In this document: in pieces, positions 564 through 64,000 of the stretch
Layout: every line of letters starts with the position of its first letter
Position numbering within the stretch: the first letter of the stretch is position 1
Source: Eledone cirrhosa
Taxonomy: Eukaryota
Direction: 5' to 3'
Assembly: GCA_964016885.1 (NCBI GenBank)
Contig: OZ024740.1
Span: 18,910,001-18,974,000, forward strand
DNA length: 64,000 bases
Notes under the pieces: model-generated
What the model was told of the DNA's origin: nothing
What the model saw: the letters and a program-made list of their open reading frames with translations, nothing else
Database searches by the model: none
Position numbers and translations under genes: made by a program

Positions 564-629
564 TATTTTATCTGATGAAAGCGCACCATAGTTTACTTTG
601 GTGGCCCTTGAAATATGTATAATGAAATA
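564..629 (+). ncRNA. Type I hammerhead ribozyme motif with minimal stem III
   Basis: Stem I TATTTTAT/ATGAAATA; CTGATGA 572-578; stem II AAG..CACCA/TGGTG..CTT; GAAA 610-613; T-ATGT-A stem III; AUA triplet. Confidence 0.7.
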
Positions 630-913: not shown

Positions 914-1398
914 CGGGTATGATTTTACATTCATTTAAATTATTGACGTATTGTTTTATTGATATTTTTTATCTGTTTGGCCCGAATCTTCCTTTATCGA
1001 TTTTAAATCGTATGGTTGATTGTAGACTTGTTCTATATGTGACGGTATTTTAACGATAGTTATAGCTCTGATTCATCTGAATTATTGAGCCCTCTGCCGC
1101 TCATATCGAATTTCGTTTTTCGTGAACTCGTGCGCCGATTTTTCGATACTCGATCTTTCTAATATATTTAGCTCTGGACATAGCTATCCACCAGTTAATT
1201 TTATTGCTCATTTTTTGTCGATTCTATTGAGTGATGAATAGCTTTTGTTTTATTTTAACATGTCTATTGAGCACTCTAATTCGATATGTGTATTTCCACA
1301 TTCACTCGAATTGTTTTCGCGGATATAGGGGTCATCTCCCTTGTCTAATGCCATGTGCGTTTTTCACCGCTAGTTGACTCCTCTGCCGCCAGGAAAAA

Positions 1399-1533
1399 AC
1401 TCGTTGACAACGTAAACTCCGTTCCACTTATTCTAGTAGGCTTTTATATTTATATGTGAGCTGATAGAGTACAGTCTAAGGATTTACAGAAACCCATGAA
1501 GCTAGATTTAACACCTTTCTAGTGGGTCCGGGT
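1399..1533 (+). ncRNA. Hammerhead ribozyme, U3-A8 core variant, long stem II
   Basis: Stem I ACTCG/CGGGT; core TTGACAA 1404-1410; stem II C-GTAAA...TTTAC-A (78 nt); GAAA 1489-1492; stem III CCCA/TGGG with inner CTAGA/TCTAG; GTC 1526-1528. Confidence 0.75.
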
Positions 1534-2013
1534 ATGATTTTACATTCATTTAAATTATTGACGTATTGTTTTATTGATATTTTTTATCTGTTTGGCCCGA
1601 ATCTTCCTTTATCGATTTTAAATCGTATGGTTGATTGTAGACTTGTTCTATATGTGACGGTATTTTAACGATAGTTATAGCTCTGATTCATCTGAATTAT
1701 TGAGCCCTCTGCCGCTCATATCGAATTTCGTTTTTCGTGAACTCGTGCGCCGATTTTTCGATACTCGATCTTTCTAATATATTTAGCTCTGGACATAGCT
1801 ATCCACCAGTTAATTTTATTGCTCATTTTTTGTCGATTCTATTGAGTGATGAATAGCTTTTGTTTTATTTTAACATGTCTATTGAGCACTCTAATTCGAT
1901 ATGTGTATTTCCACATTCACTCGAATTGTTTTCGCGGATATAGGGGTCATCTCCCTTGTCTAATGCCATGTGCGTTTTTCACCGCTAGTTGACTCCTCTG
2001 CCGCCAGGAAAAA

Positions 2014-2148
2014 ACTCGTTGACAACGTAAACTCCGTTCCACTTATTCTAGTAGGCTTTTATATTTATATGTGAGCTGATAGAGTACAGTCTAAGGATTT
2101 ACAGAAACCCATGAAGCTAGATTTAACACCTTTCTAGTGGGTCCGGGT
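2014..2148 (+). ncRNA. Hammerhead ribozyme (second copy in the 615-bp array)
   Basis: Same sequence as 1399-1533, shifted by 615. Confidence 0.75.
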
Positions 2149-2385
2149 ATGATTTTACATTCATTTAAATTATTGACGTATTGTTTTATTGATATTTTTT
2201 ATCTGTTTGGCCCGAATCTTCCTTTATCGATTTTAAATCGTATGGTTGATTGTAGACTTGTTCTATATGTGACGGTATTTTAACGATAGTTATAGCTCTG
2301 ATTCATCTGAATTATTGAGCCCTCTGCCGCTCATATCGAATTTCGTTTTTCGTGAACTCGTGCGCCGATTTTTCGATACTCGATC

Positions 2386-2439
<54 letters not shown>

Positions 2440-3243: not shown

Positions 3244-3373
3244 TATAGCCTCGGCTTAAAACGATACCTTCAGAGTGGAAGTTGTCTCTGTTCATATTCC
3301 GTAATTTAGCGGCTCGACATAAAAAGATATAAATAATATACGTATGAGATTTAAAAACAAAAATAAAAGCTAT

Positions 3374-3445
3374 TCCTCGGTAGTGTAGTGGTAAGTATCC
3401 TCGCTTGTCACGCAGGAGACCGGGGTTCGATTCCCCGCCAGGGAG
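3374..3445 (+). tRNA. tRNA-Asp(GTC), possibly a pseudogene
   Basis: TCCTCGGTAGTGTAGTGGTAAGTATCCTCGCTTGTCACGCAGGAGACCGGGGTTCGATTCCCCGCCAGGGAG; A and B boxes, GTC anticodon, TTTT downstream; one C-A mismatch each in the acceptor and anticodon stems. Confidence 0.85.
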
Positions 3446-3808
3446 GCTCAAATTTTAATGGTGGTGTCCCAGCATGTCCTCAGCCTCTCTGCTGGAACAT
3501 GTAATAGAGTAATAGAGTAAAGTAGTGGGCTTTATGTGATTGACTAAATCAAGGCAGTGCTCCAGGTTGGCCGAAATCTGTTAGCTGAAACCAGTAGAAA
3601 AAAAAAAGATTAAACACATTTGTAATATCTCTAGAGTAGCTTGACATTATCAATCACTTATTAAAATATTCCTAAACAGAGAGTGTGTAGTTAATATGAA
3701 GCATTATGAGAGATGTAGTAAAAGCCGATAGATTCCCTTTTAAAAGACAGTACAATGTGAGAGAAAAATACGAAGGACAAATGATGATAAATGAAACAAA
3801 AGAAAATA

Positions 3809-7375: not shown

Positions 7376-7537
7376 GTTGGGGGTAGGTGTATATCTGTAT
7401 ATATATGTGGAGAAGGGGTGTATCTGCGTATATATATAAGCCGGTGTCCTGGCATGCTCGCACTCAGATAACTTAAAAATGAAAGAATCTATACATACAT
7501 ACATACATACATACATACGTACATACATACATACATA

Positions 7538-10090
7538 GATCCTAAATCAGTTTATCGCAGCTTCGGTGGCAAAAGCTCAATCTCTGTAAATGACACCCCT
7601 TCAAAAGAACAGGTTGAGAGCTACTGGAGATCTGTATGGGAAACGGATGACGGATTCAACAGACAAGCTAATTGGCTAAAAGAACTGGAACAGGACTACT
7701 GCCAACATGTCCAGACAAAACAATATGACATAGATGGGTCAATACTGGAAACAGCTCTACAGAAAATGTCGAATAGGAAATCGCCAGGCCCAGACCTCAT
7801 TACAGGATACTGGTTGAAGAATTTCACTTTCTATCGGCAAGATCTCATACGGCTGTTTACAGAAACCATTAAGGGCACACAAGAACTGCCCAGATGGTTA
7901 TCAACTGCCTCTACTCTCCTCATTCCCCAAAATAGCCAAACCACCCTTGCTAAAAATTACCGCCCAATTGCCTGCCAAAACATCATGTATAAATTATATA
8001 CTGGGTGCCTTAACCTGTTCTTACAGGATCACTGTGCTACCAACAACATCATAACACCTGAGCAAGCTGGTGGAAAGAGGGAGGTGTGGGGTTGCATAGA
8101 TCACCTACTAACTAACAAAATGATTCAGGAAAAAACAACAAAGAATCGCAGAAACATGACTGTCGTGTGGCTGGACTATCAAAAAGCATTTGATAGTGTA
8201 CCTCATGGGTGGATTGTTAAGGCTTTACAGTTAGCTAAAGTCCCACAACCATTGGTAGCTGCTGTTGAACGCCTGACCAAGAACTGGTACACCAGTTTGA
8301 TCCTTAGAGGTGAGAAGGAGCAGGTTAAGACTGATAAGATACATTACCAGAAGGGCATCTTTCAGGGTGATAGCTTGTCAGTGCTACTCTTCGTTCTCTC
8401 ACTGAATCCACTATCTTACCTCCTCAAGAAACAAGGTCGACAAAGAAGTGGGACCAGAAGTATCTCCCATCTTTTCTTTGTTGATGACCTGAAGTTGTAT
8501 GGGCCAAATATCAATGACATCAAGAAACAATTGGACCTCATTACACAATTTTCAACCGACATCAAAATGAAATTTGGTGAGTCCAAGTGTGCATATTTGG
8601 CAGTAAAACGTGGAAGAGCTGTGCCCTCCTCTAGAAATCTAGAGATGAACGGCCTGACAATACAACCTCTGCAGTCAGGTGACAACTACAGATATCTTGG
8701 ACAGGATGAGAATGTCAGATATGATGGACCCATAAATAAGGAGAGAACCAGAACTGAATACCTCAGAAGAGTAAAGAAAATATGGTCATCAGAACTGTCA
8801 GCATACAACAAATACATTGCCCACAATACTTATGCTGTGCCAATTCTAACGCCAACATTTGGCCTACTGAACTGGTCATTGCAAGAACTAAGTGAGATGG
8901 ATGTTAGAACTCGAAAACTTCTCAGTGTTACTGGGAACTTTAACATCAATGGTGATGTGGATAGGCTATACTTCTCACGCAAGGAAGGTGGCCGGGGTCT
9001 AAAATCAATATTAACAACATATGAGACCCGGATAGTGACACTGAAGCAACACCTTCAACAGAGGAAAAAGGTTGGCAACCATCTTGCCCAGGTTTATGAC
9101 CATGAAAAAAGAAATATCATTAGAATAGCGACTGATCTGGAGGAGAGATATGGAATAAAGCCCGATATAAATCTCTCACCCAGAGAAATCGGAAGATCCT
9201 ATTCAATGTTCAAACAAGAAAAAAAAATCGACCAATTTACAGAAAAAGTTGTGCATGGATACTTGAGGCGTAAAACACAGACCATAGAGGGGATAAACCA
9301 CTCAAAAAGCCTGGCATGGGGTTCCGACAAGTTTATGACATCACACCTTGAGGGATATCTCTATGCAATACAGGAACAAGAACTCCCTACCAAATATCTG
9401 CTGCACAAAAGAGGAGGGCCAGCAGCTGACAATAAATGTAGGCTATGTAAAACAAAGATCGAGGATGTAAGCCACATTGTTGCCAGCTGCGAAAGAATGT
9501 CATCTCGCTACTACCTCCCCATGAGACACGATGGGATAGCTAGAACCATCTGGAACGCACTTCGGAAAACAAAATCAACAACAAACGAGGAAGAATATAT
9601 TGAGACAGATGGCACTAAGGAATACTGGTGGAACCTGAAAATAAAAACTGCCACCAAATTAAAGCACAACCGGCCTGATATTGTAGTTTGGGACCACACA
9701 TTGAAAACGTGTTCTGTTGTGGAGATCAGCTGCCCACTTGATGTAAACGTTGTCAGAAAAATACAGGAGAAGGAGGACATCTACGGACCATTGATGAGGA
9801 GTTTACAAATCCAGTATCCAAGATACACCTTTAGCTTCATACCCATCATTATTGGTGCTACGGGTTATATACCAACCCGCTTGGACCAAAGTATGACTGA
9901 ACTTGAATTTGCGGACAAAAAGCGCAGCTCCCTAATTCATAGTCTACAAATGGCTGCGATAGCTGGCACCTTCAAAATTTGCAAAACATTCTTGCGATTC
10001 AAGGGATGACAATTTCTTTTCTTTTACAACCTTGCCACCAGGAAGGTGGCCGGTCAAAAAATATACTCAAAATTAAGAGAAAGAGAAAAT
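7538..10090 (+). mobile_element. 5'-truncated R4/Dong-like non-LTR retrotransposon (RT + CCHC + RLE) inserted in (CATA)n
   Basis: Reading frame open from 7538 to the stop at 10009; (CATA)n on both sides. Confidence 0.85.
7766..10009 (+). CDS. Reverse transcriptase / restriction-like endonuclease ORF of the R4/Dong-like element (747 aa, N-terminally truncated)
   Basis: Motifs KSPGPD, YRPIAC, LDYQKAFDSVPH, GIFQGDSLS, FFVDDLKLY, EGGRGL, CRLC..HIVASC, RHD, RPDIVV..VEISCP. Confidence 0.9.
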   Translation: MSNRKSPGPDLITGYWLKNFTFYRQDLIRLFTETIKGTQELPRWLSTASTLLIPQNSQTTLAKNYRPIACQNIMYKLYTGCLNLFLQDHCATNNIITPEQAGGKREVWGCIDHLLTNKMIQEKTTKNRRNMTVVWLDYQKAFDSVPHGWIVKALQLAKVPQPLVAAVERLTKNWYTSLILRGEKEQVKTDKIHYQKGIFQGDSLSVLLFVLSLNPLSYLLKKQGRQRSGTRSISHLFFVDDLKLYGPNINDIKKQLDLITQFSTDIKMKFGESKCAYLAVKRGRAVPSSRNLEMNGLTIQPLQSGDNYRYLGQDENVRYDGPINKERTRTEYLRRVKKIWSSELSAYNKYIAHNTYAVPILTPTFGLLNWSLQELSEMDVRTRKLLSVTGNFNINGDVDRLYFSRKEGGRGLKSILTTYETRIVTLKQHLQQRKKVGNHLAQVYDHEKRNIIRIATDLEERYGIKPDINLSPREIGRSYSMFKQEKKIDQFTEKVVHGYLRRKTQTIEGINHSKSLAWGSDKFMTSHLEGYLYAIQEQELPTKYLLHKRGGPAADNKCRLCKTKIEDVSHIVASCERMSSRYYLPMRHDGIARTIWNALRKTKSTTNEEEYIETDGTKEYWWNLKIKTATKLKHNRPDIVVWDHTLKTCSVVEISCPLDVNVVRKIQEKEDIYGPLMRSLQIQYPRYTFSFIPIIIGATGYIPTRLDQSMTELEFADKKRSSLIHSLQMAAIAGTFKICKTFLRFKG

Positions 10091-11901: not shown

Positions 11902-11965
<64 letters not shown>

Positions 11966-11966
<1 letters not shown>

Positions 11967-12141
11967 TTATTCCGGGTTGAATCGGAGATAACCACAGTAA
12001 GGTACTCAATACATAGCAGAGTATAAAAGTTTTAATATAGAAGAGCTTCTACAGGACTAGAACTGTTTCATTCGTGAGAAATCATCAGTGACCTTCCTGA
12101 TGATTTCTCACGAATGAACAATTCTAGTCCTGTAGAAGCTC

Positions 12142-12148
<7 letters not shown>
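11966..12148. repeat. Family-A element with an inverted HHR pair (12044-12088 minus; 12093-12140 plus)
   Basis: CTGATGA-TTTCTCACGAAT-GAA(A)-CAR-TTCTAGTC-CTG-TA-GAAGCT on both strands; each copy partly damaged. Confidence 0.7.
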
Positions 12149-18720: not shown

Positions 18721-21700
18721 TACCGAGAACAACGGTGGCACTAAAGACAACAATGATAACAGCGACAGTGATAACAACAACACCAACAAGAACAACGACA
18801 ACAACAACAACACCAAGAAGAACACTTTCGCTGCGGCAGCAGCAAAAATGAGGCCATGCTTCAACATGGACCTCTCAAACAAAGATGAAAAGTTGGCCCA
18901 GGCATGGAAGCTCATCAAGCAAGAGCAAACCTGGGCCAACTTAACTGTCCCGGTAGAAGCTATTGAGGCAGTGGAGCGCAGAACGGTGCATTATAGATGC
19001 ATCTCAGCACAAACCAAAAGGGCAGCTTTAATCCCACAAGCAGATGTCGAAGTCTCGCTGAGGTGCATCGGCGAAGACACCGAATACATAAAGAGGGGAA
19101 GACAGTACGGCACCATTTCGGTGTTGTTCAAGTCAGAAGCCCTCGCTATGAAACAGGCTATGACTCCTTGCAGAACCAGCAAAGTCATAATGTACCCCTC
19201 CCACATGGGAAAAAGAACGGCGCGTCTCCGCATTCCCAGAATCCCACCAGGACTTGACATGTGGTGGCTTCTGGGATGTGTGATTGTGGAGGGGACGGAT
19301 ACCGTCCCTATAGAAGTGACCAGAACCACCAGAGAGGACTGGCCCGGGGTTGACCTGGAGATCCTTCTCCAGATCAGGCTCGAGAATGTGAAGACAATCG
19401 CGGACCACATCCGCCTTCAGAATGGGACGGTCATTCACATTATGACCGAAGGCAAAAGGCCGCAGTGTTTTGTTTGTGGGGAAAAAACCCATTTGCGAGT
19501 CTTCTGCCTTCAACTGCTGAAAGAGGCAAGGGGTCGAAAGGCTCCACTGCTGCCGACGCCGGGGCGAGGATCACAACCAACACCAGCACCGGCGACACCA
19601 CCACCAACAACACCAATAGAAAGACCACCACCAACATTGACCACCCAGGGGGGAAACGAGGAAAGCTGTCAAATTCCTCCTCCCCCCAAAATACACACAC
19701 CAATAAAACCATAAACATACATACAGACACACTTACAGACACAGACCCCTCATCTACCAGTAGTGAAGATGAGGGAAAACCAAAATCCCCCAAAATACAA
19801 AAAAGAAACACAAAAATAAAAATAAAACTCAACAAAGCACAAAATAACCCACAATAAAAAACGCAGACACCACCCACGCAAACATCTCTCCAATAACACC
19901 AACATCAACACCACCATCACCATCACCATAATCCCCCAAACGCAAACAACCTAAACAGACGCAAGAACAAATATATACACAAACATCTGAAACCACAGAC
20001 ACCGCACTCACAACAGACACAGACACAACCGAAACATAACCACCAAAACCATCACCACCACAGCCACGCAAACAAATAAAATCACACCAACAAAACATAC
20101 AAAACTTCGTGCTCGTCAGGAGGGCCAACAAGGAACTGATGGCCCTCGTAGCACGAAGTGAAAGTATACAAAAAGAGGGACAAAGTTTTAAATCGAGCAC
20201 ATTTCGCGTGCCGGAAGATTTGGTTCTGGTGCGAATGTCGCTCGATATATTCAAAGAAATACGAGACAGCTTTCCTCGGGACGTGGGAACCCCGAACGTA
20301 AAACCCACTTCAAGACTTTTAAGGGGTTCCCAAAAGAAACCCCACCAACTGTGGAGGTCGAACAACCCGACCTTCACAAGAGCCCGGAAGGTAAGTAAAC
20401 CTTCCTCTCTCTCTTTTTAATCTGCCAACATGGCCGTATTAAGAGTAGGATGTTTAAATGTTCGAGGCCTGGGATCGTCCTGGAAGCAGGGTCACCTGCT
20501 CAACGACCTCAGGTCTCTAGAAATGGATGTAATTGCCGTCAGCGAGACCAGGATTTCCGACACGCGCGCACTAGCCCCCATTTTCGTCGACTATCAGATC
20601 TTTGCATCTGTTAGCCGGCCGGGAATGGGAGGCGGGGTGGAAGTACTGTTTAGGAAAGGCCTGGATCTCGAGGTAAGACCGATCTTCCGGGACCCGGACG
20701 GGAAGTTGGTGGTCCTGGACGTGAACAATAACGAAGGTGGTGCCTTTAGACTGGTGGCCGTCTATGCCTCTACTGGGGCAGGACGGCCGGACTTCTTTAG
20801 ACGCCTGGAAGCCTTTCTGGGTACGTCTCGCCCTTCACTGTTACCTGGGGACTGGAACGGCATCTTAGGCGCACGCTGGGACTGTGTGGGAGTATCCGAT
20901 AGGAGCAGGGGGGGGGGGGGCAAAAGCCTCAAGAACCTGATCAGCCAGTTCCAACTGTCTGACAGGTACCGACTAGATTTCCCTAATGCGCCAGTGTGGA
21001 CCTGGGCTAACCGCATAGGGTAATCTAGATCGTATATAGACAGGATATTCATCAGGAAAATACACAGAAATAGTGTAAGCTGGACACGTTTTGAAACGGT
21101 CACCTATTCAGATCACAAGTTTGTGATCTGTATGGTCGACCTAGATAAGACGCGTAGATTAGGACCTGGTTACTGGAAGCTAAACATGTCATTTCCGACA
21201 CGTAAGGCTTACAGGGACCAGGTCAACAATTTAGTTAAGAAAAAGTTGACAGAGGGAGTCGTCAACAATAGATGGTGGGGGGGAGGCTCTCAAAAGAGAG
21301 ATTAGAGTAATGTCGATAGAGTTTAGCAAAGAAGTAGCGTTAGAGAAAAATAGAAAGGAGGGAGAGTTGGTAGATAAGTTAGACGAGGCTATTGGTAGTG
21401 GCATTGCAACTGATGTGCTAGCGGCGAGAATGGCATTAGACCATTTCTTCAATGCGAAACACGAAGGTTGCATTGTCAGAGCTAAGGCGCATGCTCTGAG
21501 AAACGAGGGCACCAAAGCTGTTCGATGGGCCCACGTGGCAGAGGTGCATCGTGGTAATAAAACCACGATCGGTCCTTGATGGACCGAGACGGGCACGAGC
21601 TGAGCGATTCCAAGAGGATGTGTGAGGCCTTTCGCCAACATTTTGCTCGGTTGTTCGGGGGAGCTGGCGGGTCAGAGATGGTGGCGGACTTCAGTCCCTA

Positions 21701-23951
21701 CCTCGATGGCTTGCTGCAACTCTCGACGGCTGACGCTGGGCGCTGCGAAAGGCCAATTACTTCAGCGAGTTTCAGGATGCCCTTGTCGGCTGCATGAGGC
21801 GCAAGTTACCTGGTTTGGTGGTCTGCCCTACGAGCTTTACGTAAATATGCCAGACTTGTTCTCCAATCTCCTCGAAGCCCTCTACTGCAACTGGCAGCAA
21901 AACGGGAGTATTCCCAGTTCTGTGAGCCGGGGCGTAGTTACGCTGATAAGGAAAGACGAGAACAAGAGGGACACATTAGACAATTTCAAGCCCATAACTC
22001 TGCTCAACACAGAGTTTAAGATTTTGGCCAGTGTGTTAGCAAAGAGGTTGGCGCTTGTCGTCGGGGATTTGGTTGGGGAGGCGCAAACTTGCGCAATCCC
22101 AACCAGGTCCATACATGACAACCTCCACCTAATGCGATACATCACAGAGAGGGTAAGGTGTAAACCTGGCTTCGGTGGGGCTCTGATCAATTTAGATCAA
22201 TCGAAAGCATTCGATAGGGTCGACCATCGGTATCTGGAGGCTGTCCTCAAAGCGGCTGGCTTCGGCCCCGTCTTCAGAAGCTGGAACGCTGCAATGCACA
22301 GCGGCACCTGCTCGATGGTCAAAATTAATGGCCACCTCTTGGAACCGTTTCAGATCTCCCGATCGGTCCGTCAAGAGTGCCTTCTCTCCTCCCTTCTGTA
22401 CGTATTGACTCTCGAGCCTTTACTGCGGAAGCTGGAGCTGTTGCAGGGCATCCCGCTAGAACCGGGACGAGGAAAGGCTGTGTCGGCTTATGCCGTCCAA
22501 CAGCGTCGTCGGTCGCTGGACGGACGGACCGGTTAAATTGCTAGGGGTCTGGTTCGGTCCAGACCTCCAGACGGACAAAAACTGGGACGAGGTGACGAGC
22601 AGGGTGGCTTCTCTCACCCAGAAATGGGCCGAGAGGAAGCTATCCCTGAAAGGTCGAGCGGAGGTGGCGAATGCGTACATCGCATCCGTCATCTACTACC
22701 GCCTGACCGTCGTACCTTGTCCTAAGCCCCGCCTGACTGCGCTGGAGCGTTTGCTCTTTCGCTTCTTGTGGAAGGGACGCGCTCCGATGGTCAGGCGGTC
22801 CATCTGCTGTCAACACCCGCTACGTGGAGGGATGGGCATGCCGTGGCTGATGATGCGCAGACACGCGCTCAGGCTACGACATCTCCACCTCTTCCTCGAC
22901 GGTGATCAGGTGTGGTCGCCGTTTGCTAGACACGTTTTTCCCCAGCTCGTCTCCTTGACGGAGCTGCAGTCCTGGGTCAAGCGAAGACCGAGAGGGAGCG
23001 CTTGGAGACTGGAATGTCTTCAGGCGCTCACAGCCCTCGACCAATCGGGCAATGTGATCGGTGGAAACTCCACCTTGGCGTTCTACAGGGTATTAGTGGA
23101 GGGGAAGAGCGACGACGTACTTGGAGAAACTCTAGGCGTCGACGAAAATCAACTAGCCAATCTCTTCGGAAGGACTTTCGGTCCGGGGCCTATGGACAAC
23201 TTCCAGAAATCCCTGGCCTGGCAGTGCTACCGGGGTGCTTTGCCAGTTCGGGATAAACTTTACAGGCATGGAGGTGCCGTCAGCCGGGCATGTCCGAGAT
23301 GCGCACAGGGCGACGAAACCGTCCTGCACGCACTCACCCAGTGTCCGAGCATTACTGACTTGTGGGTTTATGTCGAACACCTGCTGTCACGTGTAGGACG
23401 GATCCAGCTATCAGCTGAGTCCATCGTGAGGATTGCCCCGCCCTCTTCCTTTAGCCGGGAAGGGCAGGCAGTTTTTATCTGTCTGGTGGCCATGGCGAAA
23501 GAGATAGTATGGTGGACACGTTTGAAAGGGCTGAAGACGAGCACTTACCTCTTCGGTGATGCCCTGATTAACTTTTTCAAATTTCATCTGAAAAGGAAAA
23601 TCAGGGTAGAGAGGGAAGTGCTCTCTTCCCAGCATTTTGTTGAAAGATGGGTGAGAGAAGCAAGTATGGCCCGAATGAATGGGCCTCCTCTGAGTATGTG
23701 TCTGTAAATTAAAGGTGGAAAACTGGGAGAGGGCACTTGCCCTGGTGGTCAGGGCCACTGTGGTCTTTTAATGGGCTTTCTCCACAAATGTCCCTCGGAA
23801 GTCTTCCCCCTATTGGGGAATTTTTTCTTTGTTATTTTATTTCAACCTCTGTTTTTTTTACACGCAGAAATGCCCATTTGTACCGTCCTGTATTGTCCTG
23901 TACTGTCCTTAATGTCTACTTTATGTAAACCCTTGTGGTTAATAAAGAAAA

Positions 23952-27262: not shown

Positions 27263-28006
27263 TTGTCAAGCTATTTAAACGTATGTTATTACTCTAAGGA
27301 CCTACCTTGTCGAGTGCTTTGCTAACTCATTCATATAGTAGGTCGAATTTGCTTGCACACCGCCAAAGATTCGATTTTACTAAGCCTCCAATTATATTAT
27401 ATTATTTTCTCCTAGATTTAATAATTAACTAATTAATTTAATTAGACAATTCTGTTGATTGGTTAATTATTTGTGTTTGTTTAATAACATCTGGTCGAGA
27501 GCTTATTCTGAATGTTAGCGGAAATTATAATATTTCCTTTGTCTAACACTTTGAATGACCCGCCAAAAACCGGGGGTTATTTCCTTTGTTGGAAATAACA
27601 CGTGACAACTAAATGTTCGATTCGCTGCTGCTAGTTGCAACATTTAGTATTTCGCCCCGTTCTTTGGTAGAACGAAATCCTGTTGATGAAATGAATCCTC
27701 TGTTCGATCATGAATACCAGGAGCTTGCCAGTTACGTAAGTCTGATATTTGATTTCGGATTCATAGAAACACTTTAAACGTATAACGTTTGACTTGTCCA
27801 AGTGTATTTTTTCTCAACCCGTTAGTTCTTTCGTTGCTTTGGTATTGTGTGTTAGATTTTGCCTACCACAATGTTCAATTTGTCAAGCTATTTAAACGTA
27901 TGTTATTACTCTCAGGACCTACCTTGTCGAGTGCTTTGCTAACTCATTCATATAGTAGGTCGAATTTGCTTGCACACCGCCAAAGATTCGATTTTACTAA
28001 GCCTCC

Positions 28007-28010
<4 letters not shown>
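27263..28010 (+). mobile_element. 617-bp non-coding partial tandem repeat (1.2 copies) with an HHR motif
   Basis: TTGTCAAGCTATTTAAACG at 27263 and 27880; flanked by TA runs. Confidence 0.8.
27679..27806 (+). ncRNA. Hammerhead-like motif with long stem II and U3 core
   Basis: TTGATGA 27683-27689; stem II ATGAATCC/GGATTCAT (about 76 nt); GAAA 27766-27769; CA..TG-TC (GTC 27796-27798); stem I CCTG/CAAG is imperfect. Confidence 0.55.
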
Positions 28011-28043
<33 letters not shown>

Positions 28044-30675: not shown

Positions 30676-30821
30676 AGAAGAGGAAGACCAAGGTTAACGT
30701 ATGTTGATACCCTAAGGACAGACACTGGTCTGTTGGAGACGCAGGACATGGCAGCGATAATGAGGGACAGAGACCGCTGGAGAGAACTCGTCCATGGATC
30801 TCGGGAATTTTACCCGCCTTA
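30676..30821 (+). pseudogene. RTE-like LINE 3' end fragment (inverted partial copy at 32374-32472)
   Basis: [35 protein letters not shown]. Confidence 0.65.
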
Positions 30822-30842
30822 GATATATATATATATATATAT

Positions 30843-31290
30843 ACGTAGGTCCCGGGTTGAGTCGGGGATAACCACAGTAAGGTACTCAATACATGGCAGA
30901 GTAAAATTTTTTTATTTTATAGAAGGAGCTTCTACAGGACTAGTACTGTTTCATTCAGATGAAATCTTCAGGAAGCTGGGTGTCATATTAAGTTCTGGTA
31001 TTTATACATTTAGGTAGTGGTAAGGGAGGGGTGGTGGAAGGGGGGGGGGGTATTTAGGTACAGAGGACCACTTCATGGCACAGGCCGTTTTTTCTTTGGG
31101 GAGTGGTCAATTAGCCAGAGTGCTTTTTTGAAATAAATAAATAAGTAAATAAATAAATAAATGAATACATAGATAAAAGAATAAATAAATAAAATAAAAA
31201 AAAAAAAATAAAAAAAAATAAAAAAAATAAAAATAAATAAATAAAAACCCCAAGAATAGTAATTCAACAGATATATAGTAGGGAAATTTA
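30843..31290 (-). repeat. Family-A element, longest copy; inverted copy at 33985-34342
   Basis: 30939-31290 is the reverse complement of 33985-34342. Confidence 0.8.
30927..30977 (-). ncRNA. Type I hammerhead ribozyme (family A, complete)
   Basis: Minus strand AGCTTC-CTGAAGA-T.TTC(ATCT)GAA.T-GAAA-CAG(TACTAGTC)CTG-TA-GAAGCT. Confidence 0.8.
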
Positions 31291-34340: not shown

Positions 34341-34375
<35 letters not shown>

Positions 34376-34381
34376 TAAATT

Positions 34382-34671
34382 AGCGAGAATCGTTTTCAGC
34401 TCAGGAATTAACGAAAATCAACGTCCGATATGTGTGGCAAGCGCTCGATGAATCATATGAATCAGAGCTACAACATACGTTAAGGGCCAAACACACTGAG
34501 ATGGTGGTTAAACATATCATCCGCACACCAAAACAAAACGACCAAGTAATTCGGGTCAAACAATAAAAATATGTGTTGATACTTTCCCGGACCCTGGACT
34601 GATGGTAAAATCCAGTATTGGTTTCTGCGACTCCAAATCAGGTACTGTCCGCCTACATAAAGAATGTTGGG

Positions 34672-34770: not shown

Positions 34771-34829
<59 letters not shown>

Positions 34830-34830
<1 letters not shown>

Positions 34831-35035
34831 GTAGGTCCCGGGTTGAGTCGGGGATAACCACAGTAAGTAAGGTACTCAATACATGGCAGAGTAAAATTTT
34901 TTTATTTTATAGAAGGAGCTTCTACAGGACTAGTACTGTTTCATTCAGATGAAATCTTCAGGAAGCTCCTGAAGATTTCATCTGAATGAAACAGTACTAG
35001 TCCTGTAGAAGCTCCTTCTATAAAATAAAAAAAAA
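34830..35035. repeat. Family-A fold-back element with divergent HHRs (34917-34967 minus, 34964-35013 plus)
   Basis: Near-perfect inverted repeat about 34899-35035 centred near 34965. Confidence 0.8.
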
Positions 35036-39934: not shown

Positions 39935-41940
39935 ATGGCTAATTTGCCTCTGCACGAAGCAGCTGAAAGCCTTCCTCACAAAATAACACCTCACACCGAC
40001 ACCACCATTGTAAATGTTACTACGTTTGCCAACACAAAAAAAAATATAAGCAGTAGCAATATTTTAAATTTGTCTCAGGCAGACATTCATTTCCCGCCAT
40101 TACCAATGACTGCAGGTGTTAAAGCCTCCACCACCACCACCACCACCGCGACAACCACCACCCCCACCACCACCGCGACAACAGAAACAAAAGAAGAAAA
40201 AATAAATTAACTCGTGATGTCGAAATGAAATCAAGCAAAATGGACTCTTCCGCACCAAAGACGACTGACGTCACCACCACCACAACTGAAACTAAAATTA
40301 ATATTAACACAAATAACGATAGCAACAACAACAACAATAACATTATAAAAACCCCCATCAGTTTCGCCAGAGTAGCAAAACAATTCGAAGCTTTCACGGT
40401 AACTCAGGAAGATTTAGAAAATGCCAAACAAATGGTAAAGAAAGATGGGTACAGGGTCAGCCTCACCCCCCCCCCCACCACCACCTAATAAAATGGAGCA
40501 TCGGCGCCTATGCACCGTGTCGTATAGAACAATAAATGTAAAATCGCGCCGAGTGGAACGGGCATCCGAGTCCCAAATCCAAAAAGCTTTGGGACATGTG
40601 TGGGCAAGAAAAACCCACATCAGACGTGGGCAAAAGTATGGAACCGTGGATGTGTTCTTTGAAACACCAGAGGAGGCTAGAGAACACTCCATGGCCCCAT
40701 TAAAAAGTGACGACTTCACACTCGTCCCAAGCTATTGTGGCCAGAAACTCGTAAAGATCAGGGTGACCCACGTTCCACCGGCCATCCAAATTCCCTGGCT
40801 AATAGCGGCTGTCCTCGCCGGCATCGAAGCCAACACGAAAATAATAGCAATAGCAAAAGAAAAGCAGGAAAACTGGTCCGGATCTGGGATGGAGCTCCTG
40901 ATCCAAGCGGACCAAAAAAGCATTGAGGAGATCCCAGAGGTAATAGACCTCACTGACGGCAGCCACCTCACGGTAATTGTCGAGGGCAGAAGGCCTAGGT
41001 GTGTCGTTTGTGGTGAAGGAACCCACCTAAGGGCTTTCTGCCCTCAGGCTAAAAGGTTGAGGCCACCTCTCCTACCCACCCCAGTGACACAACCATCAAC
41101 ACCACCAGTAGCAGAGATGGCAGCAACAACTGTAGCAGCAACAACAAAAGCAACTATAACAGCAACAACCCCAGCAACAGTAGCAAAACCAACACCACTA
41201 CCACGACCAGCAAAACCAACACCACCACCACCCAACGCTTCAGAACTAGCACCAGCGCCTACACCATCCACCACACCACAACCAAAACTAACGGCTGTGG
41301 AGGATTTTCCACTCCCCGGCCTATCACAACTGGAGACAGATTGTGACGACGAGGAGTGGGAAACGATATCCGGAAAAAAAAAAGAAACCAAAAAAGAAAA
41401 AATTCTCTTCCTTCCCCCTCCAAAAACAAAATACAGAGGGAAACAAATAAATTAAGAAACAAAAAAGTTAGGACAGATATGCCACCATCCACACCAGCAT
41501 CACCAACCCCATCAACCCAAACACCAACACCATCACCATCATTAACCCCAGCACCACCATCACCTACACCACAAAAGTCACCAAAATGCGAAACAGAAAC
41601 AAACCCACAACAAACGCAAACAAAACAAAACAACCAAAACGATACACACTACACAGCATTAAATTTGAACAACAAGCAATTATTACACTACATCCAACAC
41701 AACACCAGCATCACAGAAAAAGACTACACAACAACCCCAAAATTCACACCACCTCCACACATACAAATCACTCGCATCACACAGAAAACGTACATGACAC
41801 TAAAACAAAAATTCCCAAAAGACATCGGAGACTTCCGACAAGCACTCTCCAGGAGGATTTATAAGGACATCCTTCCTGAGGAGGCCACAAGCAGTGAAAA
41901 GGATGGAAAAACCGTCCTTCCCCTACGAGAAGTAAGGTAA
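39935..41940 (+). pseudogene. LINE ORF1 (zinc knuckle, Pro/Thr-rich), frameshifted
   Basis: CVVCGEGTHLRAFC knuckle; similar to ORF1 at 18848; frame breaks at or near A and C homopolymers. Confidence 0.75.
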
Positions 41941-41974
41941 GTGGTCTTTCCCATCTTTTCCACTCCTTTTCAAC

Positions 41975-44900
41975 ATGACCTCACTCAGAATAGGCAGCAT
42001 AAATGCGCGTGGCTTGGGGTCGTCATGGAAGCAGGGCCACCTGCTCAACGACCTCAGGTCACTAAACATAGATGTAGTGGCCATCAGCGAGACCAGAATC
42101 TCCGAAGCACAGGCTTTCGCACCGATCTTCGGCGGCTACGATGTGTACGCATCTCCCAGCCGTCCGGGTTCGGGGGGAGGAGTTGCTGTGCTTTTTCGGA
42201 GAGGTTTGGATCTTGCCATACGGGCCATCTTCCTGGACCCAGAAGGTAAGTTGGTGGTGCTGGACGTGACCAGCGGAGACGGGCAAGCTTTCAGGTTAGT
42301 GGCCGTCTATGCCCCGACAGGAGCAGGGCGGCCTGATTTCTTCCGGCGTCTGGAGACCTTTCTTGGAACGTCCCGCTCTTTAGTGTTAGTGGGCGACTGG
42401 AACGGGATCTTAGATGCACGCTGGGATTGTGTGGGATTAGTGGATAGGGAAGGAGGGTGCAAGAGTCTCACCAACCTGCTCAGACGTTTTGAACTGTCTG
42501 ACAGGTACCGAATGGATTTCCCGAATGTACCAATGTGGACTTGGACAAATCGCATAGGGTCATCCAGATCATATCTAGATAGAGTATTTTGTAGGGAAAT
42601 AGATAGGTCTAGCATAGGCTGTCCACAATTCAAGATAGTCAGCTACACGGACCACAAATTCGTGATATGTGTGCTTGACTTAGATAGGCTTCATAGACGA
42701 GGACCCGGCTACTGGAAGCTAAACGCGTCCTTACCAGCGCGCAAGGCCTACAGAGACCGGATTAGCGAACTAGTTAAGCGGGCGCTGACGGGGGCCATCG
42801 TCAACAACAAGTGGTGGTTTGCTCTGAAAAGAGCAATTAGAATAGAGTCCATTAGGTTTAGTAAGACTTTAGCAATAGAGAAAAATAGAGCAGAGGGAGA
42901 ACTAGTTAGAAAATTAGATGAGGCGCTTAGCAAAAGCATCGCGACCGACGTGCTTGCGGCCAAATTGGCCCTTGACCAATTCTTCAATGCAAAGCACGAA
43001 GGCTGCGTTGTCAGAGCTAGGGTGCGTGCTCTCAGACACGAGGGGACGAAAGCCGTTCAATGGGCCCGAGTGGCGGAGGCGCGTCGTGGCAACAAAGCCA
43101 CGATCCGGTCTTTGGTGGACCACGACGGGCGCATGCTACTCGATCCCGGGCAAATGTGTGAAGCTTTTCAGCGACACTTCGCTCAACTGTTCGGGGGCAG
43201 CGGCGGGCCGGATCGAGGGATGGACTTTAGTGTCTACCTCGACGGACTGCCGCGGCTTTCGGCCACTGAGGCGGAGTGTTGCGAAAAGCCGATAACAACC
43301 TCTGAAGTACGGGATGCAATGACTAGTTGCACAAGGGGTAAATCGCCTGGTTTGGATGGTCTGCCCTATGAACTTTACGTACAAATGCCAAACTTGTTCG
43401 GAGGCCTCTTGGCGGACGTCTACTGCAACTGGCAACAGAACGGGAGAATTCCCAGCTCTGTGAGCCGAGGAGCGGTGGCGCTGCTGAGAAAGGATCCGAA
43501 CAAGGGGGATAACATAGATAATTTTAGGCCCATAACTCTGCTAAACACAGAGTTCAAGATTTTGGCCAAGGTGCTAGCAAAGAGGTTGGCGCTTGTCGTT
43601 GGTGGTCTGGTGGGAGAGGCATAGACATGCGCCATTCCCGACAGATCCATCCACGACAACCTCCACCTCATGCGATACATCGTAGAGAGGGTAGCTAGGG
43701 AACCTGGCAAGGGTGGGTCTTTGATCAATTTAGATCAATCGAAAGCCTTCGATAGGGTCGACCATCGTTACCTAGCGGCAGTCCTGAGGGCGGCTGGCTT
43801 TGGGCCCGTCTTCAGAGGCTGGATCGCTGCCATGCACAGCGACATCTGCTCTGTAGTGAGAGTGAACGGTCACCTTTCGGAACCGTTCAACATCATGCGC
43901 TCGGTCCGCCAAGGATGTCCCCTCTCGTCCCTATTGTACGTATTGACTCTCGAGCCATTACTGCACAAACTGGAGACGTTGAGGGGGGGTCCCGCGCGAA
44001 CTAGGATGCGGAAGATCCGTGTCAGCATATGCCGACGATGTCACCGTAGTGGTGTCGAACGCCAAACACATCGAGGCGATCGGCACTACACTAAGAGAAT
44101 ACGAAGCGGTGACAGGAGCAATGATCAACCAGGAAAAGTCAGTGGGCCTGCAGCTCGGCACCTGGAGAGGCAGGTCCATGCCGTCCAACAGCGTCGTCGG
44201 GCGCTGGACGGACGGACCGGTTAAATTGCTAGGGGTCTGGTTCGGTCCAGACCTCCAGACGAACAAAAACTGGGACGAGGTGACGAGCAGGGTGGCTTCT
44301 CTCACCCAGAAATGGGCCGAGAGGAAGCTATCCCTGAAAGGTCGAGCGGAGGTGGCGAATGCGTACATCGCATCCGTCATCTACTACCGCCTGACCGTCG
44401 TACCTTGTCCTAAGCCCCGCCTGACTGCGCTGGAGCGTTTGCTCTTTCGCTTCTTGTGGAAGGGACGCGCTCCGATGGTCAGGCGGTCCATCTGCTGTCA
44501 ACACCCGCTACGTGGAGGGCTGGGCATGCCGTGGCTGATGATGCGCAGACACGCGCTCAGGCTACGACATCTCCACCTCTTCCTCGACGGTGATCAGGTG
44601 TGGTCGCCGTTTGCAAGACACGTTTTTCCCCAGCTCGTCTCCTTGACGGAGCTGCAGTCCTGGGTCAAGCGAAGACCGAGAGGGAGCGCTTGGAGACTGG
44701 AATGTCTTCAGGCGCTCACAGCCCTCGACCAATCGGGCAATGTGATCGGTGGAAACTCCACCTTGGCGTTCTATAGGGGATTAGTGGAGGGGAAGAGCGA
44801 CGACGTACTTGGAGAAACTCTAGGCGTCGACGAAAATCAACTGGCCAATCTCTTCGGAAGGACTTTCGGGCCGGGGCCTATGGACAACTTCCAGAAATCC

Positions 44901-45395
44901 CTGGCCTGGCAGTGCTACCGAGGAGCTTTGCCAGTTCGGGATAAACTCTACAGGCATGGAGGTGCCGTCAGCCGGGCATGTCCGAGATGCGCGCAGGGCG
45001 ACGAAACCGTTCTGCACGCACTCGTCCAGTGTCCGAGCATTGCTGACTTGTGGGTTTATGTCGAACACCTGCTGTCACGTGTAGGATCTATCCGGCTATC
45101 AGCTGAGTCCATCGTGAGGATTGCCCCGCCCCCTTCCTTTAGCCTGGAAGGGCAGGCAATTTTTATCTGTCTGGTGGCCATGGCGAAAGAGATAGTATGG
45201 TGGACACGTTTGAAAGGGCTGAAGACGAGCACTTACCTCTTCGGTGATGCCCTGATTAACTTTTTCAAATTTCATTTGAAAAGGAAAATCAGGGTAGAGA
45301 GTGAAGTGCTCTCTTCCCAGCATTTTGTTGAAAGATGGGTGAGAGAAGCAAGTATGGCCCGAATGAATGGGCCTTCTCTGAGTATGTGTCTGTAA
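41975..45395 (+). pseudogene. LINE ORF2 (APE + RT + CCHC) with one stop and one frameshift
   Basis: GSINARGL, GDWN, YLDR, TDH, KSPGLDGL, FRPITLLN, LDQSKAFDRVDH, VRQGCPLS, YADD, CPRC..H...C; TAG at 43622, G-run frameshift near 43985. Confidence 0.9.
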
Positions 45396-47238: not shown

Positions 47239-47655
47239 TGTTCAGAGGTGGTATGAAGAAAAAAAGCAATTAACTCCACGCACACACACACGCACACACA
47301 TATATATATATATACTATAAAGAATGTCCATAGAATCATTTGATAAGATATATACACCATTTCCTCTCCCAATTAGCATAATCAACCACACAATATATAT
47401 ATATATATATATATAACAAAGGAAATGTGGTAAGGAACCAGATGGACCATAACGCACCAGAGTACTCAATACTTAGGGTATTAGAGTGGGTAATAGGAAA
47501 AAGTATGACCCCGACGGCAGAGCTCAAGCCGTTTCGACGGCTATTTCTGGACTGTATATATGTATGTGTATATATATACACACACAGACATACACACACA
47601 TAACATTGACCATACGGAATAACCAGTTCTATCCTGTGGTGAACCAACAAACCTA

Positions 47656-48995: not shown

Positions 48996-49226
48996 AGGCA
49001 AAACGTAATTACATATACATATTAAAATATTCTACGACAATTATCTAATCTTTTTATCGCAACCTCTTCCTCACCATTCTCCTTCTATCTTTTATCTCCC
49101 TCCCCCCTTCTCCCAGCTATATGACATTAAAGAATCCCCACACCCCTACCACCATGACAGTTATGGTACACCGAGAGATTCGCACGAACACACATATATA
49201 CACATGTATCTATGTATGTATGTGTA
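47793..49226. repeat. Large inverted repeat (arms about 500 bp) enclosing a 567-bp partial tandem unit
   Basis: 47793-48288 is the reverse complement of 48712-49226; ATAAATAGCTTAGAG at 48044 and 48611. Confidence 0.85.
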
Positions 49227-49308
49227 TATATATATATCGGGTTGAATCAGAGGTAACCACAGTAAGGTACTCAATACATAGCAGACTATAAATGTTTTAG
49301 TATAGAAG

Positions 49309-49356
49309 AGCTTCTACAGGACTAGAATTGTTTCATTCGTGAGAAATCATCAGGAA
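49309..49356 (-). ncRNA. Family-A hammerhead with stem I truncated by (TA)n
   Basis: Minus strand TTC-CTGATGA-TTTCTCACGAAT-GAAA-CAATTCTAGTCCTG-TA-GAAGCT. Confidence 0.65.
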
Positions 49357-50157: not shown

Positions 50158-50250
50158 ACAGACGTAAAATAAGAAAATCTTTAACAAATTTTTTTTTAAA
50201 ATATGAGTCCCCGGTGTCCGCGCATTGCCTGGAGACTTAGCTGAGAATAG

Positions 50251-50332
50251 ACTCCCTGATGACGCAATGAATTCTCGACAGTTAGATTACGTAACTGTCT
50301 TTATCCCATTGCAGAAACTAATTAGTTGGAGT
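50251..50332 (+). ncRNA. Hammerhead ribozyme with canonical core and branched stem II
   Basis: ACTCC-CTGATGA-C.GCAATG..(GACAGTTA/TAACTGTC)..CATTGC.A-GAAA-CTAATTAG-TT-GGAGT. Confidence 0.85.
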
Positions 50333-50804
50333 GAAAATTTAAGTAAGTAAGTTAAAATTTAAAAAAAAAATTTTTTTTTTAAGATCTTATTTTACGTCTG
50401 TTATATTATTGTTCGGCATCCTCCTGCATTGAACCCCCTAGGTACTATGACATAACCTGTGTATTTGCTGGCATTAGCGTACATCTGTGCGCTTATGTTA
50501 GTAGATATATTAAATTATCTATATTTATCTCCAAATCACTGATTTGTCGAGCAAACCTGCCAAAACCACTTCTAAATTTTTTTGGGGGGTGTTAGTAGGC
50601 GTCTGTCATCTTACCATCCCATTCCTACTGACTAGCCTCTGTGTCACGTGATTGATTCTTTAGAATCGGCCATCTGACCAGAGGCAGCGAGGATTTCAGT
50701 GCATGGAATTCAGTCCCCGCTAGCTGTTCCATCTACTGAATTATTATTATTTTTATATGAGTCCCCGGTGTCCGCGCATTGCCTGGAGACTTAGCTGAGA
50801 ATAG

Positions 50805-50886
50805 ACTCCCTGATGACGCAATGAATTCTCGACAGTTAGATTACGTAACTGTCTTTATCCCATTGCAGAAACTAATTAGTTGGAGT
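50805..50886 (+). ncRNA. Hammerhead ribozyme (second copy in the 554-bp array)
   Basis: Same sequence as 50251-50332. Confidence 0.85.
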
Positions 50887-51071
50887 GAAAATTTAAGTAA
50901 GTTAAAATTAAAAAAAAAATTTTTTTTTAAAGATTTTCTTATTTTACGTCTGTTATATTATTGTTCTGCATCCTCCTGCATTGAACCACCTAGGTACTAT
51001 GACATAACCTGTGTATTTGCTGGCATTAGTGTACATCTGTGCGCTTATGTTAGTAGATATATATATATATA

Positions 51072-51908
<837 letters not shown>

Positions 51909-53228: not shown

Positions 53229-53392
53229 AACGAGTAGGACCCGACGGCTAATTCTGGACTGAATTAGCCGTCGAAACGGCTTGAGCTCAGGCGTCGGGGT
53301 CTTACTCGTCCCTATTACCCACTCTACTACCCTAAGTATTGAGTACTTTGGTGCGTTATGGACCACCTGGTTCCTTACCACATTTCCTTCGT
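53229..53392 (+). repeat. Family-B element with an HHR scaffold lacking CUGANGA
   Basis: ACGAGTAGGACCC-GACGGCTAATTC..GAATTAGCCGTC-GAAA-CGGC..GGCG-TC-GGGGTCTTACTCGT. Confidence 0.65.
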
Positions 53393-53406
53393 TATATATA
53401 ATTATA

Positions 53407-54148
53407 TATAAATTAATATGTATGTGATGAAACACAGATACCAACACATCTGTATATATATTGCAAAAGAAAAATTTAGCCAGATTGAAGTATACTAATT
53501 AATTAGTATACTTCAATCTGGCTAAATTTTTCTTTTGCAATATATATACAGATGTGTTGGTATCTGTGTTTCATCACATACATATTAATTTATACACTGC
53601 TCAGGGGATATTTTTCCTCATTCGAGCTGATTCCATTGTAAAAGAATTCATTACCTTATTAATTTTAACTGCTCCTAGTTTGAGCTGCAAGCCGCCTCAT
53701 ATATACGACTGTTATTTCTAGCAGTACGGTTATGAGACTAGTTAGATACTGTAAAGCCATGTGCGTCACGCAGTCTTTTAAATTATTTAGAAGTGAAGCA
53801 TATCAATTTGTCTCTGGATGTTTACTGAGGAGCGCAGGACATGATATTCCTACACTTATTTAACTCGAAACATATTTGGATCTTAATGTCTAAACTTATC
53901 TACGGAACAGGTTTGATTTTGACAATACAGCTCGTCTACGTTGATTTATTATTTTAAATCGATATGGACAAACTGTAGTATAATAATTAGTATACTTCAA
54001 TCTGGCTAAATTTTTCTTTTGCAATATATATACAGATGTGTTGGTATCTGTGTTTCATCACATACATATTAATTTATACACTGCTCAGGGGATATTTTTC
54101 CTCATTCGAGCTGATTCCATTGTAAAAGAATTCATTACCTTATTAATT
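53407..54148 (+). mobile_element. 484-bp partial tandem repeat (1.3 copies) with a 5' fold-back palindrome and an HHR
   Basis: AATTAGTATACTTC at 53501 and 53985; perfect palindrome 53407-53594; homologous to the minus strand of the 567-bp unit. Confidence 0.85.
53820..53895 (+). ncRNA. Hammerhead ribozyme motif
   Basis: GTTTA-CTGAGGA-G..(AGGA/TCCT)..C-GAAA-CAT..ATG-TC-TAAAC; base of stem II is weak. Confidence 0.7.
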
Positions 54149-63600: not shown

Positions 63601-64000
63601 CTCTTTTGAGGTCTGCTCTGTTGAGGGTTGCTCTGTTGAGGTCTGCTCTGTTGAGGGTTGCTCTGTTGAGGTCTGTCCTGTTGAGGTCTGCTCTGTTGAG
63701 GTCTGCTCTGTTGAGTCTTGTTCTGTTGATGTCTGCTTTGTAGAGGTCTGCACTGTTGAGGGCTGCTTTGTTGAGGTCTGCTCTGTTGAGGGTTGCTCTG
63801 TTGAGGTCTGCTCTGTTGAGGTCTGCTCTGTTGAGGGTTGCTCTGTTGAGGTCTGCTCTGTTGAGGTCTGCTCTGTTGAGGTCTGCTCTGTTGAGGTCTG
63901 CTCTGTTGAGGGTTGCTGTGTTTATGTCCGCTCTGTTGAGAGCTGCTCTGTTGATGTCTGCTCTGTTGAGGTCTGCTCTGTTGAGGTTTGCTCTGTTGAG
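54618..64000. repeat. 15-bp satellite (GCTCTGTTGAGGTCT)n with higher-order structure, running off the window end
   Basis: Over 600 monomers by length; variant blocks repeated with periods of 210 and 480 bp. Confidence 0.95.

Follow-up and report, generated by a model that had tools for sequence, protein, structure and literature searches.

Positions 914–2397 (plus strand) of the analyzed stretch of Eledone cirrhosa DNA (64,000 nucleotides; hereafter the window) are occupied by a tandem array of 2.4 copies of a 615-bp unit, comprising two whole units (914–1528 and 1529–2143) and a partial third, with 100% identity at period 615 (zero mismatches between 914–1782 and 1529–2397). We refer to this repeat as family A, and number its unit with C914 as +1. 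The unit has no coding capacity, as there are stop codons in all six frames; a candidate decayed ORF on the minus strand (with SGQT, PDP, and GF kept) was rejected on account of stops in all frames. Contigs of four sequencing runs establish the presence of the 615-bp unit as DNA, and no RNA data set was listed as containing it. A sequence-only reading had placed the start of homology at C914 and the internal junctions between TGGGTC and CGGGTATG; both placements are borne out, with the mismatch of T913 to C1528 ending the homology and the same junction present at 1528/1529 and 2143/2144. C914 is the base directly after the GUC cut predicted for a hammerhead-like motif.

On its right, the array ends at 2376–2397 (plus strand; unit ~+249 to +254), where ...CTTTCTAATATAT runs into a (TA)n microsatellite (2392–2437), the probable target; this end, with a junction at 722 loci, would mark an internal priming site of reverse transcription. 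On its left, the array abuts a different (TA)n-flanked repeat (721–913) that ends in a hairpin (arms 802–856 and 859–913; 52/55 pairs), and a second (TA)n microsatellite (665–720) forms the left end of the composite insertion. Upstream of this left (TA)n, a further CTGATGA..GAAA motif lies at 572–613 (+), and a similar stretch precedes a +1 start at another locus (L055).

The window also contains a copy of a sister family (family B; 34342–34620, minus strand) with the same fixed right end; a 617-bp partial tandem (27263–28024, plus strand), a relative of ~50% identity that carries GAAACA..TGTC and whose right end lies in (TA)n; and a 554-bp partial tandem (50201–51074, plus strand) whose minimal hammerhead is canonical (CTGATGA at 50256 and 50810), and which ends in (TA)n ~190 bases past its predicted cut and has an inverted relative at 51105–51684. 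As previously claimed, none of these starts at its cut site: relative to the predicted cuts, the first base lies at unit +82 in the 617-bp array and at −127 in the 554-bp array, and the family B copy begins at base 511 of the 595-bp unit. Minimal hammerhead cores also occur in short elements flanked by (TA)n at 11936–12148, 30820–30977, 34801–35033, and 49194–49356, some of which form inverted pairs. Other features of the window are a tRNA-Asp(GTC) gene (3373–3447, plus strand), LINE-like ORFs (7472–10006, 20421–23704, and 41936–45392; RVT_1, zf-RVT, and Exo_endo_phos on those scanned), and a 15-bp satellite with ~626 copies and a strong strand skew (54619–64000).

Families A and B across the genome

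In the 3.0-Gb genome assembly, the +1..+20 word of the 615-bp unit has 2151 exact copies, both dispersed and in arrays. At 722 loci, the last family A base lies at unit ~+250 and is fused directly to (TA)n, and the same right end was found in 17/18 insertions picked independently by the +1 word, the remaining one lying at an assembly gap. Left ends scatter across the whole unit, such that truncation is one-sided, and (TA)n flanks 63/92 of them; at least two units are present in 38/99 sampled loci. The sequence-only reading missed the defining fixed boundary, which is the right end at ~250; most insertions end far from the cut. Such polarity, with the right end fixed and the left ends scattered, would be expected if reverse transcription were target-primed at an internal site.

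Across 30 arrays (207 units), the difference between units is 0.4 bases inside an array versus 15.8 bases between arrays, and these 30 arrays carry 25 distinct fixed haplotypes; GGGTCCGGG is kept at 277/280 of their internal junctions at +1, the rest being single-base changes. Template jumping between cut monomers was rejected, as there are no scars at internal junctions. The within-array homogeneity fits copying round a circle, but also fits homogeneous source arrays or concerted evolution. The last of these could equally operate in ordinary satellite DNA that grows by unequal crossover and involves no RNA step; however, such an account is very improbable given that family A is dispersed over hundreds of loci that share one fixed end, fused to (TA)n, and are truncated only at the other. 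As an origin of new loci it is already contradicted, and local growth after insertion is possible.

Family B, first found by similarity within the window, has a 595-bp unit that is 57% identical to that of family A, and gave at least 341 word matches genome-wide. In 54 of the 55 loci examined, which were among the first 100 of the 341 matches listed, its right end lies at unit 221–231. Autonomous Penelope-like element (PLE) ORFs among the genome loci examined end alike, with a minimal hammerhead followed by ~200–260 bases and then (TA)n. Several clades of PLE-like ORFs with GIY-YIG and RT motifs are located beside arrays at common (TA)n sites (L122, L283, L034, L041, L040, and L044), and Pfam recognized one of the six PLE-like ORFs scanned (L044). 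In the loci examined, no profile hit was tied to a PLE ORF, and no autonomous partner homologous to the 615-bp unit was found.

Family A combines a fixed end downstream of a hammerhead-like motif with truncation at the opposite end, partial tandems, and a microsatellite target, as expected of a non-autonomous PLE, and its dispersed tandem units without coding capacity (722 loci) are as described for non-LTR retrozymes. A PLE-type origin of this young, non-coding tandem repeat family is highly probable; the element is most likely Penelope-type (non-LTR retrozyme-like) and non-autonomous, with internal priming and with part of the copying from circles.

Left ends relative to the predicted cut

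The C that precedes the +1 word is absent from only 5 of its 2151 copies: the 914 locus, three true +1 starts, and one internal substitution. Exact +1 starts therefore number four loci including the 914 copy, a count that misses any start whose flank ends in C or whose word has changed, and are above chance only modestly (three without the 914 copy versus 0.6–1.1 expected; P 0.02–0.11). An unbiased sample was provided by the first 100 of the 722 right-end loci listed; the 914 locus itself was left out, and of the 99 loci sampled 4 were censored and 95 resolved. Tabulation of these 5′ ends, which had been proposed as a check, revealed that they are not uniform, with a pile-up of 18/95 in +1..+30 versus 4.8 expected (P 1e-6), all within +5..+28; the excess has P 2.5e-4 after scanning all windows, and 4.9 ends are expected after TA-microhomology weighting. 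The neighboring windows of this sample hold 0 (+31..+60) and 7 (−29..0) left ends. A genome-wide tally of TA-flanked left ends, made by hand with the same pattern design on both sides, gave 76 distinct loci in +1..+29 (81 rows minus 5 repeats) versus 28 in −30..−5 (31 rows minus 3) (P 1e-6); the commonest position in this tally is +5 (14 ends), which is the first TA microhomology, with one end at +4, one at +1, and none at −3..0.

In family B, 9 of 54 resolved left ends lie in +1..+30, a window set beforehand from family A, versus 3.5 expected (P 0.008); 7/54 lie in +1..+10, a window picked afterwards, and 2/54 exactly at +1. The claim that the 5′ end of the insertion equals the 5′ end of the predicted cleavage product is thus upheld in part: in two families, left ends are in excess just 3′ of the predicted cut and drop on its 5′ side, but an exact match to the cut is exceptional in family A (0/95 in the unbiased sample; 1/76 TA-flanked). 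Since left ends pile up just 3′ of the motif in both families, as would follow from reverse transcriptase running off an RNA 5′ end, such an end near +1 is probable.

Near-cut copies comprise 16 haplotypes among 26 and have no common upstream flank, on which grounds inheritance of one master junction was rejected. An alternative cut at GUA (+6/+7), prompted by the mode at +5..+7, was also rejected because relatives lack that U, and TATG microhomology accounts for the mode. At two loci (L184 and L185), the first bases of the element are duplicated over a short stretch at the left junction, as slippage in the joining step would produce.

The excess differs between the families in the lap on which it falls. 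In family A it lies on the first lap (14/91 at risk), and later laps contribute 4/73 stops (P 0.38); the family B excess comes mainly from the second lap (6/10 versus 3/39). A first-lap-only excess would fit the proposal that there is no RNA end, and that the reverse transcriptase stalls on reaching the base of the folded motif, with the cDNA joined at the nearest TA microhomology, because the circle is in hybrid afterwards; the pile-up also sits at the 3′ foot of the helices. However, the fold is weak (see below), and a stall should act equally per motif copy, in contrast to the family B stops at the first and second copies. Two further observations count against stalling: both families contain exact +1 ends that lack microhomology, and none of the TA-flanked ends in family A falls at −3..0. 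Overall, we regard it as quite unlikely.

The junction of the 914 copy itself requires separate consideration. The hairpin right arm of the 721–913 repeat stops exactly at T913, where other copies of this palindromic repeat read TTCC-TATATA. The repeat is also present at 47393–47552 and 53242–53423, and both of its ends are fixed and lie in (TA)n, as would be consistent with each target strand serving for priming; 11/12 long-arm ends follow TATATATA. Interpretation of 802–913 as a fresh inverted duplication of flank was rejected, as the arms differ at 3/55 positions while the array is 100% identical, and the same palindrome is present in other copies. T913 being the usual end of the adjacent repeat, the single 914 junction is weak evidence alone. 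The +1 end of the 914 copy was either joined to the usual end of the neighboring repeat in one event, or received its neighbor later. At this locus, the match to the cut could be due to chance, through random truncation or through trimming when the palindromic repeat inserted, with the position of T913, the lack of excess among third-lap stops in family A, and the 0.6–1.1 exact +1 starts expected genome-wide all being in accord. This possibility, which we consider real but minor, is compatible with the family-level result; against it, +1 starts also occur at three other family A loci and at 2/54 family B loci. One of the former (L053:1365–1501) adjoins an inverted copy, 35 bp long, of the sequence flanking it around (TA)n, as would be expected from a jump off a finished template.

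The hammerhead-like motif

The three-helix motif is non-canonical, and its function as a ribozyme is putative. The first copy lies at 1450–1537 (plus strand; predicted cut after C1528) and comprises a core-like CTGATAGA (1461–1468), a possible stem II (1469–1487), an extra A (1488), GAAA (1489–1492), and stem III (1492–1527); the second copy, at 2065–2152 (plus strand; predicted cut after C2143), is identical. GAAA, stem III, and GUC are placed as in a type I hammerhead: G12-A13-A14 is present, and stem III is closed by A15.1-U16.1 and followed by U-H. Stem III has 5 pairs in the window and 3–6 pairs in 13 tabulated relatives, most of them chosen by GAAA/stem III/GUC words; its pairing is kept via compensatory changes in relatives that are 50–84% identical, including family B and profile hits found without motif words.

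Only this 3′ half is canonical, and the motif does not pass as a canonical hammerhead, nor as the canonical or minimal type I hammerhead present in each unit of non-LTR retrozymes. In place of the C3-U4-G5-A6-N7-G8-A9 core (CUGANGA), the window reads CUGAU-A-GA, with one extra base (CUGAUAGA); the core of the tabulated relatives is CNGAYRG in 12/13 and TGGACGG in one. Stem I does not form 4–6 contiguous pairs, having a G-C pair followed by A.G and G.G; a bulged register (2-base bulge, G.U-rich) gives 7/8 further pairs in the window and 4–8/8 in relatives. For stem II, 7 pairs are possible at a pair probability of 0.04–0.06, leaving an additional A ahead of GAAA, and the register varies among relatives. 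The free fold is more stable than the hammerhead fold by 8.7 kcal/mol, pair probabilities in the latter do not exceed 0.2, and RNAalifold recovered only 7 pairs from 8 aligned copies because the helices shift register. Rfam ribozyme models gave no match at gathering score in the window, and none to E 10 across 5 loci, which is a weak test because the canonical minimal hammerheads of the window were missed too. A type II or III topology via CGGG/CCCG (+67..+70) was rejected, as no CUGANGA follows, and a minus-strand hammerhead was rejected for having no core. The motif is hammerhead-like by sequence and fold, and cleavage is predicted; self-cleavage by this motif is about as likely as not to be the cause of the RNA end.

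A different source of an RNA 5′ end near +1 would be transcription start from an internal promoter, in which case the conserved words would be promoter or protein-binding elements and the hammerhead a relic. A promoter in the pLTR has been proposed for PLEs (PMC11167929), and an internal promoter would account both for the missing catalytic core and for a pile-up on any lap, including the second-lap excess of family B. Nevertheless, stem III covaries as an RNA helix in the hammerhead position, and a promoter alone leaves the array-specific fixed variants unexplained. Cap copying can leave an extra G, and this is found at 0/6 exact +1 junctions (families A and B). We consider a promoter origin unlikely.

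Proposed mechanism and comparison with known systems

Taken together, we lean towards a joint reading in which a PLE copies the array from a priming site at +250, on (TA)n, and the motif, by cutting at GUC, creates an RNA 5′ end at ~+1. The PLE protein would bind the RNA, prime on nicked (TA)n DNA at the internal site, and copy leftwards. Rolling round a circular monomer would yield long homogeneous arrays that stop anywhere, and linear RNAs beginning at +1 would yield the left-end pile-up at +1..+28, whose 5′ end would have been made by the hammerhead-like motif. The cDNA end would usually be trimmed to the first TA microhomology (+5, +9, +13, +16, +20, or +23), and would rarely be joined whole at +1, as in the 914 copy; there, a template jump or a later insertion would have brought the cDNA end, or the finished junction, together with the usual end of a second repeat that targets (TA)n. 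The second-lap excess of family B is not predicted by a single circle model, and the third-lap stop of the 914 copy sits outside the first-lap excess of family A.

Retrozymes, their link to PLEs, and internal initiation are already published. The role of PLE and retrozyme hammerheads in transposition is unsettled: in one reconstituted PLE, from anole, cleavage was dispensable for insertion, and no RNA reads ended at the cut (PMC11167929). The junctions of families A and B would preserve genomic traces of two sites: an RNA 5′ end located at the predicted cut, and a fixed priming site 220–250 bases downstream. A motif that cuts would be a hammerhead variant overlooked by current descriptors, with a predicted product starting CGGGUAUG; with a motif that does not cut, the pile-up would instead map a promoter or a pause, leaving the family as an ordinary, non-autonomous derivative of PLEs. 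Tentatively, these repeats may belong to a superfamily of tandem RNAs parasitic on PLEs, in which a hammerhead variant has lost CUGANGA yet cuts GUC in the germ line, and hundreds of genome junctions record the cut and priming sites; were this the case, it would constitute in vivo evidence for cleaved RNA as a real PLE template.

Like the non-LTR retrozymes (PMC7229834; 10.64898/2026.07.22.740005), family A consists of dispersed, non-coding head-to-tail repeats poor in GC, each unit has a single type I hammerhead-like motif, and PLE-driven copying of circles is proposed; its 615 bp fall within the 51–972 bp reported. It differs in the non-canonical core of its putative ribozyme. Among frog retrozyme dimers, 8/9 are reported without cleavage in vitro (10.64898/2026.07.22.740005). 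In the retrozyme literature found in a limited search (PMC7229834; 10.64898/2026.07.22.740005), neither a fixed internal priming end nor a pile-up of left ends at the cut has been mapped.

Partial tandems with one-sided truncation, a fixed end downstream of the hammerhead, and AT-rich or (TA)n targets are shared with PLE pseudo-LTRs, as reported for Poseidon of Anolis (PMC11167929), minimal hammerheads (PMC4209133), and Naiads (PMC8557442), the last of which include partial hammerhead cores (PMC8557442); unlike these, family A has no ORF. Internal initiation downstream of the hammerhead has been reported in vitro for one PLE (PMC11167929); the priming site of family A resembles its target (TAATATAT), whereas the anole PLE is described as initiating at a non-homologous site (PMC11167929).

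For R2, microhomology joining after ribozyme-made 5′ ends has been proposed (PMC3774820). Compared with R2, as described there, family A has a different class of putative ribozyme, and R2 is autonomous and single-unit; junction variation in R2 is mostly target deletion with added bases (PMC3774820), whereas family A loses element bases. As in R2 and LINEs with 5′ HDV-like ribozymes, a ribozyme-made RNA end, predicted here, would set the 5′ junction, with chance microhomology joining it to the target (PMC3774820).
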